Shown here in pieces: positions 11,123-46,837 of a stretch of 64,000 nucleotides of DNA. The translations under genes were made by a program, and so were the position numbers. Below the pieces are notes generated by a model, which was given only the letters and a program-made list of their open reading frames with translations, was not told the DNA's origin and did not search any database. Positions within the stretch are counted from its first letter, which is position 1. Each line of letters opens with the position of its first letter. Origin of the DNA: Escherichia coli (GTDB lineage Bacteria; Pseudomonadota; Gammaproteobacteria; Enterobacterales; Enterobacteriaceae); assembly GCF_003019035.1 (NCBI RefSeq), contig NZ_CP027447.1. The stretch is one strand, 5' to 3'.

Positions 11123-12142
11123 TTAATCCCCCGTGGACACTGCGTGGACACTCACGCCACCTTTCAGCGGATTAAGGGCCACCGCATCCTGCAGGTAATC
11201 CGGTGCAAAATGTGCATATGCCATTGTTTGCTGAATGGTTGCGTGGCCAAGAATCTTCTGAAGCGCAATAATGTTTCCTCCGTTCATCACAAAATGGCTG
11301 GCGAACGTATGCCGCAGCACATGTGCAGCTTGGCCTTTTGGCAAATCGGGCTTAACTCTTTTCAGCGCCAGGCAGAATTCCCGGTACTTCACCTCAAACA
11401 AGCCGCCTGTTTCTCTGGTTTTGATCGCCTCACAAACTGCCTGCGAAATTGGCACTGTTCTCTTTCGGCCATTTTTGGTTTCAAGAAACGTTACACGGTT
11501 ATGAACTATCTGTTCACCACGAAGCTTACAAGCTTCACTCCAGCGCGCCCCCGTGCTTAAACACAAAAGCGCAACACGCCAGTAATCGCCCTCCAGTGTA
11601 TCGAGCAATAGCGCCACTTCCTTCTGGGACAGGAAAGCCATTTCTCGTGGAGATACATAAAGAATAGAAATTCCCCTTACCGGATGTTCTGCATCCCAGA
11701 GGCCTATTTTCTTCAGTATGGTAAACATTCCGGATAACCGATTCATGTATCTGTTAGCAGATGACGGTTTCAATCCATCAGCTATCTTTTGAGAACGCCA
11801 CGCGATAATTTTTAGCTTATCAAGATCCACAGCCTGCATATCAGCGCCAAGCTCATTGATTATGTTGCGCAGTTGTTTTCGGTCTTCTTCCGCCTTACGC
11901 CTGTGCTGGCCGTGATACATCCACCACAACTCAAGCAAATCATTTAGCGTTCGACGATCACGGTAGCCCTGTATATATTCCCGCTTTTCAGCGTTCGCCA
12001 TGATGTAGCGTTCAGTGGCCACCGCTACCGATTTTTTGTCAAATACCTTACGCACGCGCTTTCCCTTGCGTCCGTTCGGCCTGATGTCCAGCAAATAACG
12101 ACCATCTTCGAGCTTCTTAATCGACATTGCGAAGCCCTCCAA
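11123..12142 (-). CDS. int: Phage integrase (tyrosine recombinase, P2 Int-like)
   Basis: 339 aa; C-terminal catalytic HxxR ... Y motif (HVLRHTFAS ... MAYAHF); adjacent to att core. Confidence 0.9.
   Translation of the reverse strand: MEGFAMSIKKLEDGRYLLDIRPNGRKGKRVRKVFDKKSVAVATERYIMANAEKREYIQGYRDRRTLNDLLELWWMYHGQHRRKAEEDRKQLRNIINELGADMQAVDLDKLKIIAWRSQKIADGLKPSSANRYMNRLSGMFTILKKIGLWDAEHPVRGISILYVSPREMAFLSQKEVALLLDTLEGDYWRVALLCLSTGARWSEACKLRGEQIVHNRVTFLETKNGRKRTVPISQAVCEAIKTRETGGLFEVKYREFCLALKRVKPDLPKGQAAHVLRHTFASHFVMNGGNIIALQKILGHATIQQTMAYAHFAPDYLQDAVALNPLKGGVSVHAVSTGD
11138..11150. repeat. attL core (CACTGCGTGGACA), inside the last codons of int
   Basis: exact 13-bp repeat (17/18 with flank) also at 46825-46837. 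Confidence 0.5.
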
Positions 12143-12223
12143 TGAACCGCTCTACAATTTCTCCAGCCTCTTTCCAGCAATAATCAGACCAGACAAAAAG
12201 CAGGTCTAACCAGTTTTCTGGCC

Positions 12224-12544
12224 TCAGCGGGATAATTTTTGGATTGTTTCGGTTGAAACACGATCTCCCTCCGAATTGCAGGAACCATCAAGAGAGAGAG
12301 CCGGAGAAATTTGCCCAACCTCCGGCATCGTTTCATCTGTTGATAACCAATAAGCATATTTCTTAAATTTAGGGTGTTTAGTAACCTTAAGTAAGGCACC
12401 CTCTGTTACTTGCTTCCCCCTCACCTCATAGTTAGTTACCGTCCCATAAGGCAGCCCAACACAATCCGCAAACTCCTGGCGGGTCATACCTTCTGCTTCA
12501 CGAATCAGGCGAAATTTTTCACCCATGCTTGACAAAGATGCCAT
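12224..12544 (-). CDS. P2 C-type immunity repressor (HTH)
   Basis: HTH MTRQEFADCVGLPYGTVTNYE and C-terminal KYAYWLSTDE...GQISPALS resemble P2 C; start taken at MASLSS (extended ORF runs to 12598). Confidence 0.8.
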   Translation of the reverse strand: MASLSSMGEKFRLIREAEGMTRQEFADCVGLPYGTVTNYEVRGKQVTEGALLKVTKHPKFKKYAYWLSTDETMPEVGQISPALSLDGSCNSEGDRVSTETIQKLSR

Positions 12545-12657
12545 ATCGGGCATATCCTCCATCGCAACATGCCACATCGGGCATAAACATAAAAACACTC
12601 AAATAAGCCGATATAAGCCATTTTGAGCCATTCGAACGAATTAGGGAGATTACCACA

Positions 12658-12945
12658 ATGAGCGAATCAGAGCTTGGGGGCTTCATTCAGGTAGCACCAT
12701 ATCCACTTGAAGCGGTGCCATATCAACTATTCGCCAAGATGATCGGCCGCAAGGAATCCACAGTCAGAACCATGATTGACGCAGCAAAGCTACCGACAAT
12801 TGACTTTGTGAAACCAGGTTCAGTAAAGACGCGTGCATCAGAAAACTGGGTATATCTGCCAGCATTTAACGAAGGCATGCGCAAAGCGTTTTTTGAGCAA
12901 CCGAAAGAACGCCGCGATGCATGGTTGTTGTGGCTGGGGCTTTAG
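12658..12945 (+). CDS. cox: Cox-like excisionase / transcriptional switch protein
   Basis: 95 aa, divergent from repressor; WVYLPAFN ... WLLWLGL resembles P2 Cox. Confidence 0.8.
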   Translation: MSESELGGFIQVAPYPLEAVPYQLFAKMIGRKESTVRTMIDAAKLPTIDFVKPGSVKTRASENWVYLPAFNEGMRKAFFEQPKERRDAWLLWLGL

Positions 12946-12951
12946 CCATAA

Positions 12952-13158
12952 ATGACCAGCCATATCATCAGCGCCATTCTGACCCTTGTTTTTATTGAGA
13001 CAGACGTAATAGCGATCTATTTGTTTCGTAAGTTAACGGGACATGAAGAACGCTTTATTGAACTCAGCATTAAATATATCGCCGCTTATACCAAAGGGCT
13101 TTTCCCGGCAGCTATTGGGGCGATGTTTATAGTGTTTGTTATCTGGTTTATCGGGTGA
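12952..13158 (+). CDS. Hypothetical small membrane protein (early region)
   Basis: 68-aa ORF with two hydrophobic segments; position after cox. Confidence 0.4.
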   Translation: MTSHIISAILTLVFIETDVIAIYLFRKLTGHEERFIELSIKYIAAYTKGLFPAAIGAMFIVFVIWFIG

Positions 13159-13410
13159 GAAACCTGATAAACCACAACTACTGCAATGAGGGTAATTATG
13201 TGTGGCATGGACAAATTGGACCTTATGTTAATTGTAATACTATCAATTAACTTCGGTTACCTCTTAAGCGGCGTAATTCTCATGTGCGGAGGCAAACGAA
13301 AATGAACCAGCAGTCCGCAAAACGTGAAAACAATGCGATGCGATTTAATCGCAAATATTTTGAGTTTGGCCGCTATGCCGGAATAATTAAATCTGTACAG
13401 AGTCTTTAAC

Positions 13411-13752
13411 ATGAAACAGCAACGTAATTCACGCTTTCGTAATGGTGCTGAACGTCACGCTAACCGTTTCGCTACCAGTGCATCACGCAACAACATTCGC
13501 TACAGCCTGAGTGATACACACGCAACGCCGGATGGCTACCCAGTAAAACAAATCGGCGAGCATGCCTGGCTAATTGAGAAAGCTGGAATCGTGGTCCACA
13601 AATGCCCACGCAATCCGTTTACTGGAAACCGCATTTTTGCTCTAAGCAGCGGCGACAATCAGTTCGGGCAGGATTTCACATTATACGAAGCACTACGCAC
13701 GGTTGATCGTCTGCTTCGCGGACAAAGTTTTATTAAACAGGCTGATTTATAA
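13411..13752 (+). CDS. Hypothetical protein (early region)
   Basis: 113-aa ORF in early operon, same strand. Confidence 0.45.
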   Translation: MKQQRNSRFRNGAERHANRFATSASRNNIRYSLSDTHATPDGYPVKQIGEHAWLIEKAGIVVHKCPRNPFTGNRIFALSSGDNQFGQDFTLYEALRTVDRLLRGQSFIKQADL

Positions 13753-13762
13753 CAGGTGCTTT

Positions 13763-45679: not shown

Positions 45680-45715
45680 ACCCGCAGCGTAAAAACTGCG
45701 GGTTTTCTTTTTGCT
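45680..45715 (+). terminator. Rho-independent terminator
   Basis: ACCCGCAG-loop-CTGCGGGT followed by TTTCTTTTT. Confidence 0.6.
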
Positions 45716-45757
45716 ACCCTCACAAATGAGGGCACCATACATAAGCAATAGGCATAA

Positions 45758-45800
45758 CAGATCGATGCAATAAATCCGATCGATAAAAACGATCGATTTG
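45758..45800 (+). promoter_or_regulatory. Triple-GATC regulatory region upstream of com-like gene (Mu mom-type, Dam/OxyR-like)
   Basis: GATC at 45760, 45778, 45791; shares ATCGAT(T/A)AAAACGATC(A/G)ATT with 20551-20570. Confidence 0.45.
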
Positions 45801-45832
45801 TTATCATATCGGCAGCAGTAACCACACAAGAG

Positions 45833-46039
45833 GTGCCGCAAATGACGCAAAATGTACGATGCAAAAATTGCAACAAACTACTTGCCCGCGCCTCATTTCA
45901 CTACATTGAAATAAAATGTCCGCGCTGCAAAACACTTAACCAGATAACGAGAGCCATCGAGCACCCCACACACATGAGGAGTTATGACCGTGGGGATCGC
46001 AATCCAGCACCAACCAGCACATACACCGGAACACACTAA
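45833..46039 (+). CDS. com: Com-like zinc-finger translational activator
   Basis: VRCKNCNKLLARASFHYIEIKCPRCKTLN closely resembles phage Mu Com (IRCKNCNKLL...HIEIRCPRCK). Confidence 0.8.
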   Translation: MPQMTQNVRCKNCNKLLARASFHYIEIKCPRCKTLNQITRAIEHPTHMRSYDRGDRNPAPTSTYTGTH

Positions 46040-46775
46040 GGTTTATCAGACTGACAATGCCACGCTCTGTCGTGGGAATGCGCTGGAAATATTGCCGCTG
46101 ATTGAGCCAGAAAGTATTGATGCCTTAATCACTGACCCGCCTTACAGTTCGGGCGCGACACACAAGGCCGGACGCACCAACCAGGGCAGCCACGCAAAAT
46201 ATCTGAACGGCGAGAACCTTCATCGCTTTGATGGGTTTGCGGGTGAAAACATGGATGCCCGTTCGTGGGCTTACTGGACACAATTATGGATGGCACAGGC
46301 ACACCGCGCAGTCAGGCCGGGCGGTTATGCCCTGGTATTTACTGACTGGCGACAACTGCCAGCTTTAACCGATGCGTTTCAGGCCAGCGGTTTTACATGG
46401 CGTGGAATCATTGCGTGGAACAAAGGAAGGGGGTCACGAACACCCCATACGGGGTATTTCCGGCATCAGTGCGAATACATCGTCTGGGGCAGTAAAGGCC
46501 ATTTAGGTAAATCGCCTTCGGGACCGTTCGACGGCTGCATGACGTTCCCGGTTATCCCATCAAAGAAAATGCACCCGACCGGAAAACCAGAAGAACTTAT
46601 GGCAGAACTGGTCAGGACTGCGAATAGTGGTGGAACAGTCCTTGATCCTTTTATGGGATCGGGAACAACGGGTGTTGCAGCACTGAAAGCAGGACGCAAA
46701 TTTATTGGTATAGAAACCAGTGATCATTATTTTGATGTAGCAACACAACGGCTCAAAACGGCGATCGAACCATAA
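45984..46775 (+). CDS. DNA methyltransferase, beta-class amino-MTase (N6-adenine or N4-cytosine)
   Basis: DPPY catalytic motif followed by FxGSGTT AdoMet motif; overlaps com 3' end as mom overlaps com in Mu; true start probably downstream of 45984. Confidence 0.8.
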   Translation: MTVGIAIQHQPAHTPEHTKVYQTDNATLCRGNALEILPLIEPESIDALITDPPYSSGATHKAGRTNQGSHAKYLNGENLHRFDGFAGENMDARSWAYWTQLWMAQAHRAVRPGGYALVFTDWRQLPALTDAFQASGFTWRGIIAWNKGRGSRTPHTGYFRHQCEYIVWGSKGHLGKSPSGPFDGCMTFPVIPSKKMHPTGKPEELMAELVRTANSGGTVLDPFMGSGTTGVAALKAGRKFIGIETSDHYFDVATQRLKTAIEP

Positions 46776-46779
46776 GACA

Positions 46780-46800
46780 AAGCCCGCAATGTTGCGGGCT
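46780..46800 (+). terminator. Hairpin after methyltransferase gene (weak terminator)
   Basis: AAGCCCGCAA-TGT-TGCGGGCTT; no strong U-tract. Confidence 0.35.
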
Positions 46801-46824
46801 TACTCTACCTCTCGAAAATGTGGT

Positions 46825-46837
46825 CACTGCGTGGACA
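46825..46837. repeat. attR core (CACTGCGTGGACA)
   Basis: direct repeat of 11138-11150. Confidence 0.5.

Follow-up and report, generated by a model that had tools for sequence, protein, structure and literature searches.

A P2-family prophage of Escherichia coli inserted at a 20-bp core in the 5′ end of pdxB, with a 13-bp repeat in its putative arm-type integrase sites

The stretch of 64,000 nucleotides of Escherichia coli DNA analysed here as a whole (the window) harbours a P2-family prophage of ~36 kb between pdxB and flk, as recognized in a previous sequence-only reading. The prophage was almost certainly inserted by its tyrosine integrase at a 20-bp attB within pdxB, and a 13-bp direct repeat formerly regarded as the att core is part of putative arm-type integrase sites of attP. 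The unique prophage DNA (10941..46883; 35,963 bp with one core copy) is of the Peduoviridae, Xuanwuvirus (P88/PhiSM) type: nucleotide comparison yields 95–98 % identity with phages PhiR44_2, Shae_phiSM and Chuche, and Pfam matches cover replication protein gpA, terminase, portal and tail fibre. On the far side, the flk ORF starts at 47005. The view that no tRNA is involved was confirmed; since the tRNA/tmRNA scan of the window was empty, the att site is not of the tRNA type.

Both prophage ends carry the 20-bp direct repeat TTTTCATCAACAAGGATTTT in 100 % identical copies, i.e., (i) the attL core at 10921..10940, spanning pdxB codons 2–8 (KILVDEN), and (ii) the attR core at 46884..46903, delimited from repeat and alignment. 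They are located outside the two copies of the 13-bp repeat, by 198 bp on the left and by 47 bp on the right. No shared word longer than 14 bp occurred in any of 2000 shuffles of two 700-bp prophage-end regions. The attB sequence rebuilt at the 20-bp repeat (10441–10940 joined to 46904–47403; 1000 bp) is matched gap-free with 100 % identity in the prophage-free E. coli SCU-301, and 5122 of 5426 complete E. coli genomes contain it in one unbroken place; the attL junction (pdxB–int) was found in 302 of these 5426. Conversely, free phage Chuche contains the attP sequence rebuilt at the same repeat as one uninterrupted stretch (997 of 1000 bp, 96 %), and in P88_4B11 this sequence is uninterrupted across the junction. 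In a five-way alignment, attL consists of the left part of attB, the core and the right part of attP, and attR of the left part of attP, the core and the right part of attB. With these junctions, the empty site and the contiguous attP, the two 20-bp copies constitute the true crossover regions of attL and attR, and the prophage ends proposed previously at the 13-bp repeat have to be moved outwards to the host junctions at the 20-bp repeat. Inspection of the 20-bp core by eye for inverted repeats revealed ATC...GAT as its only palindromic part, and no core-type half-sites emerged from it. The 20-bp repeat had been overlooked in the sequence-only reading.

The integrase gene int (11123..12127, minus strand) encodes a P2-type tyrosine integrase of 334 amino acids with matches to Pfam Phage_integrase (E = 1e-22) and Int_N, containing the tyrosine recombinase catalytic residues (R, H-x-x-R, H, Y). 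Int is 97 % identical to Int of Chuche, 98 % to that of PhiSM and 50 % to that of P2. The motifs conserved between Int and P2 Int (GARW, HxLRH, GH and Y) are represented by GARW, HVLRH, GH and the Y of MAYAH, which align with P2 Int. Identity to the latter amounts to 56 % in the N-terminal, 31 % in the core-binding and 60 % in the catalytic domain, a pattern that, at the level of sequence, fits shared arm sites combined with a different core. Residues Y, D and R at alignment positions 16, 19 and 21 were proposed as discriminators of P2-type arm sites (Nilsson 2011), and correspond to Y11, D14 and R16 of the present Int if an offset of 5 residues is assumed.

The window contains the 13-bp repeat CACTGCGTGGACA in exactly two copies, each on the plus strand (11138–11150 and 46825–46837), and the flanked copies GTGGACACTGCGTGGACA (11133–11150) and GTGGTCACTGCGTGGACA (46820–46837) agree in 17 of 18 positions, as stated before. 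The left copy is indeed located within the last codons of minus-strand int (C-terminus ...KGGVSVHAVSTGD*, stop at 11123–11125). These last codons and the stop are not supplied by the host, as had been supposed: since the free phage Chuche and phage PhiSM encode this 334-residue Int down to an identical C-terminus and stop, int lies wholly in phage DNA, ~180 bp of which separate its stop from the core.

Each 13-bp copy is contained in a tandem pair of octamers with an 11-bp period, representing putative Int-binding sites. The P′ arm pair (11132..11150, plus strand) comprises two octamers CGTGGACA and encodes the Int residues SVHAVST, whereas the P arm pair (46819..46837, plus strand), composed of TGTGGTCA and CGTGGACA, is non-coding. 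Each side of the core thus carries two or more direct repeats conforming to tgTGGaCa, the arm-site consensus of P2-type integrases (PMC3448106). In the rebuilt attP, the core is 47 bp distant from the P pair on one side and 191 bp from the P′ pair on the other. The tandem motif YGTGGWCR-N3-YGTGGWCR, searched on either strand of the 64-kb window, is found in two places only, which are the two arms.

The organization of the attachment region, described previously as differing from the classical P2 arrangement, is in fact that of P2 (NC_001895). Common to the prophage and P2 are a terminator or terminator-like hairpin, tandem repeats in the P arm, an IHF site, the core, a spacer and P′ tandem repeats in the last int codons, with int directed towards att and with the same orientation of C, int and att. 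The P2 record lists P arm, IHF, core, Cox and then the P′ arm inside int; it places the P′ arm site (24470–24496) inside the int 3′ end, with the int CDS ending at 24462, and the overlap of the prophage P′ pair with the last int codons (SVHAVST) is exactly as in P2. The annotated Int-binding arms of P2 are TGTGGTCAatgTGTGGACG (P) and TGTGGACActgTGTGGACA (P′), and the arm consensus is the same in both phages. In contrast, the cores differ (27-bp AAAAAATAAGCCCGTGTAAGGGAGATT in P2, 20-bp site inside the pdxB start in the prophage), as do the attB sites. The distance from core to P′ sites is also larger in the prophage (~190 bp) than in P2 (~90 bp), the extra DNA holding a replacement leader for pdxB and a hairpin.

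The interval from the P arm sites to the core contains a perfect match TATCAAGAAATTA (46860..46872, plus strand) to the IHF consensus WATCAANNNNTTR; the P2 IHF site has the same relative place and a similar sequence, AAATCCTTTTAT(T/A)TCAA. A hairpin resembling a terminator, directly flanking the P arm on its outer side (46780..46801, minus strand), occupies the same place as the terminator of the P2 ogr/F-operon. The P′ arm spacer, which is Cox-bound in P2, contains a hairpin with a 13-bp stem (11062..11096; fold z-score −3.6). The prophage encodes a Cox-type excisionase and repressor (12658..12945, plus strand; Pfam Phage_Cox, E = 1e-22) 56 % identical to P2 Cox, as well as a C-type immunity repressor with a helix-turn-helix (12224..12544, minus strand), transcribed towards int and pdxB. 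A scan for cox boxes (TTAAA[G/C]NC[A/C]) covering the P′ arm, the P arm and the Pe/Pc switch region yielded three near-consensus boxes in the P′ arm (0.8 expected, p ~0.05) and none in the Pe/Pc switch region; since this enrichment is marginal, the scan is not used as evidence.

According to one alternative, the two 13-bp copies are without function at the DNA level, the left one being kept for the Int C-terminus SVH(A/T)VST and the right one being a coincidence. The left copy is indeed coding and the repeat alone proves little, since chance should produce ~30 exact 13-mer pairs in a window of 64 kb. This alternative is nevertheless very improbable: the non-coding right octamer pair is conserved in attP of Chuche and P88_4B11, both copies form tandem octamer pairs of 11-bp period and same orientation confined to the two arms, the GenBank record of P2 labels the equivalent sequences as P and P′ arms bound by Int, and shared words of at least 13 bp between the two 700-bp end regions arose in 9 of 2000 shuffles (0.45 %). 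The previous assignment of the 13-bp repeat as att core, with recombination inside the int 3′ end and host DNA giving the last int codons and stop, could draw on an exact direct repeat near both prophage ends that overlaps the Int C-terminus, but is refuted beyond reasonable doubt, since the prophage-free pdxB–flk site lacks the 13-mer (best match in 2 kb with 3 mismatches on the other strand, at chance level) as well as the supposed host DNA of 197 bp (10941–11137) and 46 bp (46838–46883), attB and attP are contiguous when rebuilt at the 20-bp repeat in accordance with the alignment, free phages carry the full int with stop and the DNA between 13-mer and core on both sides, and the PhiSM site was placed in pdxB by experiment (PMC6456863).

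Insertion at the 20-bp core in pdxB agrees with the findings for PhiSM: random-primed PCR followed by Sanger sequencing placed its attP at ATCCTTGTTGATGAAAA, within the 5′ end of K-12 pdxB (Magaziner 2019, PMC6456863), the sole paper found in a search of the literature for pdxB as prophage integration site. This 17-bp site lies, as reverse complement, inside the 20-bp core. As in case of PhiSM, attB is located in the pdxB 5′ end, the attP core is identical and non-lysogens have an empty site; attP/attB identity extends over 20 bp in the present E. coli versus 17 bp reported for PhiSM, and the native pdxB start is GTG here versus the ATG described for K-12. PhiSM (Citrobacter rodentium; Shae_phiSM, OR565851) shares the P′ arm and the phage-supplied pdxB leader with the prophage. 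Over the initial 23 kb of prophage DNA, to which the comparison extended, identity to PhiSM is 95.7 % across 87 % of the length. Differences concern cargo and the tail-fibre cassette region. The same int and attP are present in Chuche (PP925824), isolated from mud and with a contiguous attP in its record, PhiR44_2 (PV340564) and P88_4B11 (LR595891), which diverge from the prophage by 2–8 % at the nucleotide level and differ in accessory genes.

In the lysogen, the host part of pdxB, from native codon 2 to the stop (9807..10940, minus strand; annotated in empty site and lysogen), ends in the left core copy, while the orphaned native GTG start (46904–46906) and the native upstream region (46904..47004, minus strand) now point into the prophage; in the empty site, the annotated pdxB CDS reaches 3 bp beyond the core. 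A putative replacement 5′ end is supplied by the phage (10941..10977, minus strand), comprising an AAGGAG Shine-Dalgarno motif (10972–10977) separated by 7 nt from an in-frame TTG (10962–10964). Judging from sequence and translation, this TTG probably serves as pdxB start in lysogens; an AAGGAG plus TTG replacement start was already proposed by Magaziner 2019, and MG1655(PhiSM) lysogens grew on minimal medium (PMC6456863). Chuche, P88_4B11 and PhiSM all carry this leader in unchanged form. The NCBI annotation pipeline PGAP instead begins pdxB of lysogens at an internal ATG, predicting 370 amino acids that lack the first 8 residues.

Scanning the P′ arm for a sigma-70 promoter of pdxB yielded no convincing candidate. 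The sole match, TTGTCA-17-AAAAAT (10964–10936), overlaps the TTG codon itself, and the −10 box TAAAGG suggested in the 2019 paper overlaps AAGGAG, so that the resulting transcript would lack this ribosome-binding site. No minus-strand terminator between int and pdxB was found in a scan of 10965–11122, and the hairpin at 11062–11096 is unlike a canonical terminator in that the minus strand lacks a U-run. C, int and pdxB are co-oriented in the window. One may speculate that pdxB of the lysogen has no promoter of its own and is expressed by read-through from the immunity operon (Pc, C, int, pdxB), an unlikely though conceivable arrangement.

In the proposed mechanism, Int of a P2-family (Xuanwuvirus, P88/PhiSM-like) phage would recognize arm sites in which either arm bears a tandem pair of YGTGGWCA octamers with an 11-bp period; by analogy with P2, its N-terminal domain would bind these and its central and catalytic domains the core, with IHF presumably bending the P arm at the consensus site. 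Integration at the 20-bp attB over pdxB codons 2–8 separates the arm pairs, P passing to attR and P′ to attL, and removes the native pdxB start codon and upstream region. The phage AAGGAG and in-frame TTG may then restore the full-length pdxB reading frame. For excision, Cox may act on the P′ side, again by analogy with P2.

Integration of this phage type at the pdxB start has been described before, for the near-identical PhiSM, and the window represents one further instance among 302 of 5426 complete E. coli genomes. The main value of the present analysis is therefore a correction of annotation, i.e., placement of the prophage ends at 10921–10940 and 46884–46903 instead of at the 13-bp repeat. 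A practical point is that the PGAP start of pdxB in these lysogens differs from the phage-supplied TTG. Should read-through hold true, vitamin-B6 synthesis would depend on lysogeny and be switched off when Cox represses Pc at induction, affecting ~5.6 % of sequenced E. coli.

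The prophage is bounded by a perfect 20-bp direct repeat (TTTTCATCAACAAGGATTTT) at 10921-10940 and 46884-46903, the left copy of which represents codons 2-8 (KILVDEN) of pdxB on the minus strand. Joining 10441-10940 to 46904-47403 yields a model of the empty host site (attB). Its entire 1000 bp align without interruption to E. coli SCU-301 at 100 % identity, where pdxB and flk are annotated, and 5122 of 5426 complete E. coli genomes carry it as one contiguous locus. The pdxB-int junction of the window occurs in 302 of the 5426, and these junctions and the empty sites cover essentially all genomes. 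The correspondingly rebuilt free-phage site (attP, 46404-46903 joined to 10941-11440) is unbroken in the free phage Chuche (PP925824; 997 of 1000 bp at 96 %), obtained from mud, and is contiguous over the junction in phage P88_4B11 (LR595891) as well. In a five-way alignment, the left prophage end (attL) consists of attB-left, core and attP-right, and the right end (attR) of attP-left, core and attB-right.

The sequence-only reading had overlooked this repeat and proposed as att core a 13-mer (CACTGCGTGGACA), which indeed occurs exactly twice on the plus strand of the window (11138-11150 and 46825-46837; 17 of 18 positions identical with flanks). Its left copy lies, as stated, within the final codons of the minus-strand integrase gene (C-terminus ...KGGVSVHAVSTGD*, stop codon 11123-11125). 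Such a pair alone is weak evidence, since about 30 random 13-mer pairs are expected per 64 kb; in comparisons of the two 700-bp prophage-end regions, however, a shared word of at least 13 was obtained in only 9 of 2000 shuffles. Both copies of the 20-mer are located outside those of the 13-mer, and the latter is absent from the empty site, where its best match (3 mismatches, other strand) is at chance level. From the rebuilt sites, the alignment and the 13-mer-free empty site it therefore follows that the prophage ends map elsewhere than at the 13-mer, and that the correct att core is the 20-mer. The prophage itself was borne out as real, and a tRNA/tmRNA scan of the window detected no gene, in agreement with the proposed lack of tRNA involvement.

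The 13-mer represents the overlap of two tandem octamers, which form a pair of probable integrase arm sites on each side, i.e., CGTGGACA ctg CGTGGACA in the P' arm of attP (11132-11150) and TGTGGTCA ctg CGTGGACA in the P arm (46819-46837). Both pairs share the same orientation and an 11-bp period, and the tandem motif is restricted to these two sites on both strands of the window. In the rebuilt attP they flank the core, the P pair ending 47 bp before and the P' pair starting 191 bp after it. The record of phage P2 (NC_001895) lists terminator, Int P arm, IHF, core, Cox and Int P' arm in this order, with arm sequences TGTGGTCAatgTGTGGACG and TGTGGACActgTGTGGACA and with the P' arm (24470-24496) inside the int 3' end (CDS end at 24462); TGTGGACActgTGTGGACA encodes SVHTVST of P2 Int, corresponding to SVHAVST in the present phage. 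A perfect IHF consensus (TATCAAGAAATTA, 46860-46872), embedded in a stretch similar to the IHF region of P2, and a terminator-like hairpin directly outside the P arm (46780-46801) also occupy P2 positions; support for Cox boxes is marginal. Contrary to the supposed departure from P2, these positions show the att layout to be the classical P2 one. The P' arm also contains a hairpin with 13-bp stem (GGGCAATACTGAA...TTCAGTATCGCCC, 11062-11096) between core and int stop, which is kept in Chuche, P88_4B11 and PhiSM (OR565851), but has no equivalent in the shorter P' arm of P2.

The integrase (334 aa; Pfam domains Phage_integrase and Int_N) is the same protein in Chuche (97 % identity) and PhiSM (98 %), with C-terminus and stop alike, and phage DNA continues for about 180 bp beyond the int stop before the core is reached. 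Int is thus complete within the phage, rather than receiving its last codons and stop from the host as had been assumed. Compared to P2 Int (50 % identical, catalytic motifs conserved), identity amounts to 56 % in the N-terminal arm-binding, 31 % in the core-binding and 60 % in the catalytic domain, the same pattern as in P2-like integrases with common arm sites and differing core specificity (Nilsson et al., PMC3448106). The switch is completed by a C-type repressor, encoded on the minus strand at 12224-12544, and by a Cox protein (12658-12945) that shares 56 % identity with its P2 counterpart.

The remainder of the element corresponds to a P88/PhiSM-like member of the Peduoviridae. Its early region contains matches at Rfam gathering score to isrK sRNA (15310-15384) and C4 antisense RNA (15420-15507), the latter a P1/P7-type immunity RNA here within a P2-family prophage. 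The homologue of replication gene A is directly followed by the gene of an actin-like plasmid-segregation protein of the ParM/StbA type (19170-20129; Pfam StbA_N, E = 7e-82). The region 33970-38080 has the appearance of an invertible, multi-cassette tail-fibre locus and resembles Min/Cin/Gin-type host-range switches. Four inverted copies (83-93 % identity) of the final ~220 nt of the tail-fibre gene (32848-34353) are present, and each stands at the head of a minus-strand ORF for an alternative C-terminal cassette (35515-35973, 35984-36451, 36462-36890 and 36901-37464). A fifth, direct copy is located at 34410-34648. Neighbouring genes encode a tail-fibre assembly protein (34904-35515) and, within ORF 37272-38078, a serine DNA invertase. 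Cargo at the right prophage end (45000-46775) comprises an ogr-like zinc-finger gene (45000-45260), a Hok/Gef-like ORF of 46 aa (45452-45592; "MokW-like host killing protein" in the Chuche annotation), a Com-like ORF (45833-46039) and an N6/N4 DNA methyltransferase (45984-46775).

Core, gene-start replacement and arm-site architecture have all been described previously. In case of the C. rodentium phage PhiSM, attP was mapped by random-primed PCR and Sanger sequencing to ATCCTTGTTGATGAAAA, 6 bp inside the pdxB 5' end of E. coli K-12; on integration, pdxB loses its native start codon together with its upstream elements, the phage encodes an in-frame TTG preceded by AAGGAG, and MG1655(PhiSM) shows growth on minimal medium (Magaziner et al. 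2019, PMC6456863). This 17-mer lies within the present 20-mer, and the leader sequence (AAGGAG at 10972-10977, 7-nt spacer, TTG at 10962-10964) is shared without change by the window, PhiSM, Chuche and P88_4B11; for translation from the phage TTG, the first 15 residues of the PdxB N-terminus were predicted. The RefSeq/PGAP annotation (L004 667-1779, i.e., window 9807-10919; 370 aa, WP_063082483.1) places the pdxB start of the lysogen at an internal ATG, native codon 9, thereby disregarding the phage-supplied SD and TTG and omitting the conserved KILVDEN N-terminus kept by the att core. The -10 box put forward in the 2019 study coincides in part with the ribosome-binding site. Since scanning of the P' arm revealed no convincing sigma-70 promoter, no terminator was found on the minus strand of the int-pdxB interval, and C, int and pdxB are co-oriented, pdxB may plausibly be expressed in lysogens by read-through from the immunity promoter.
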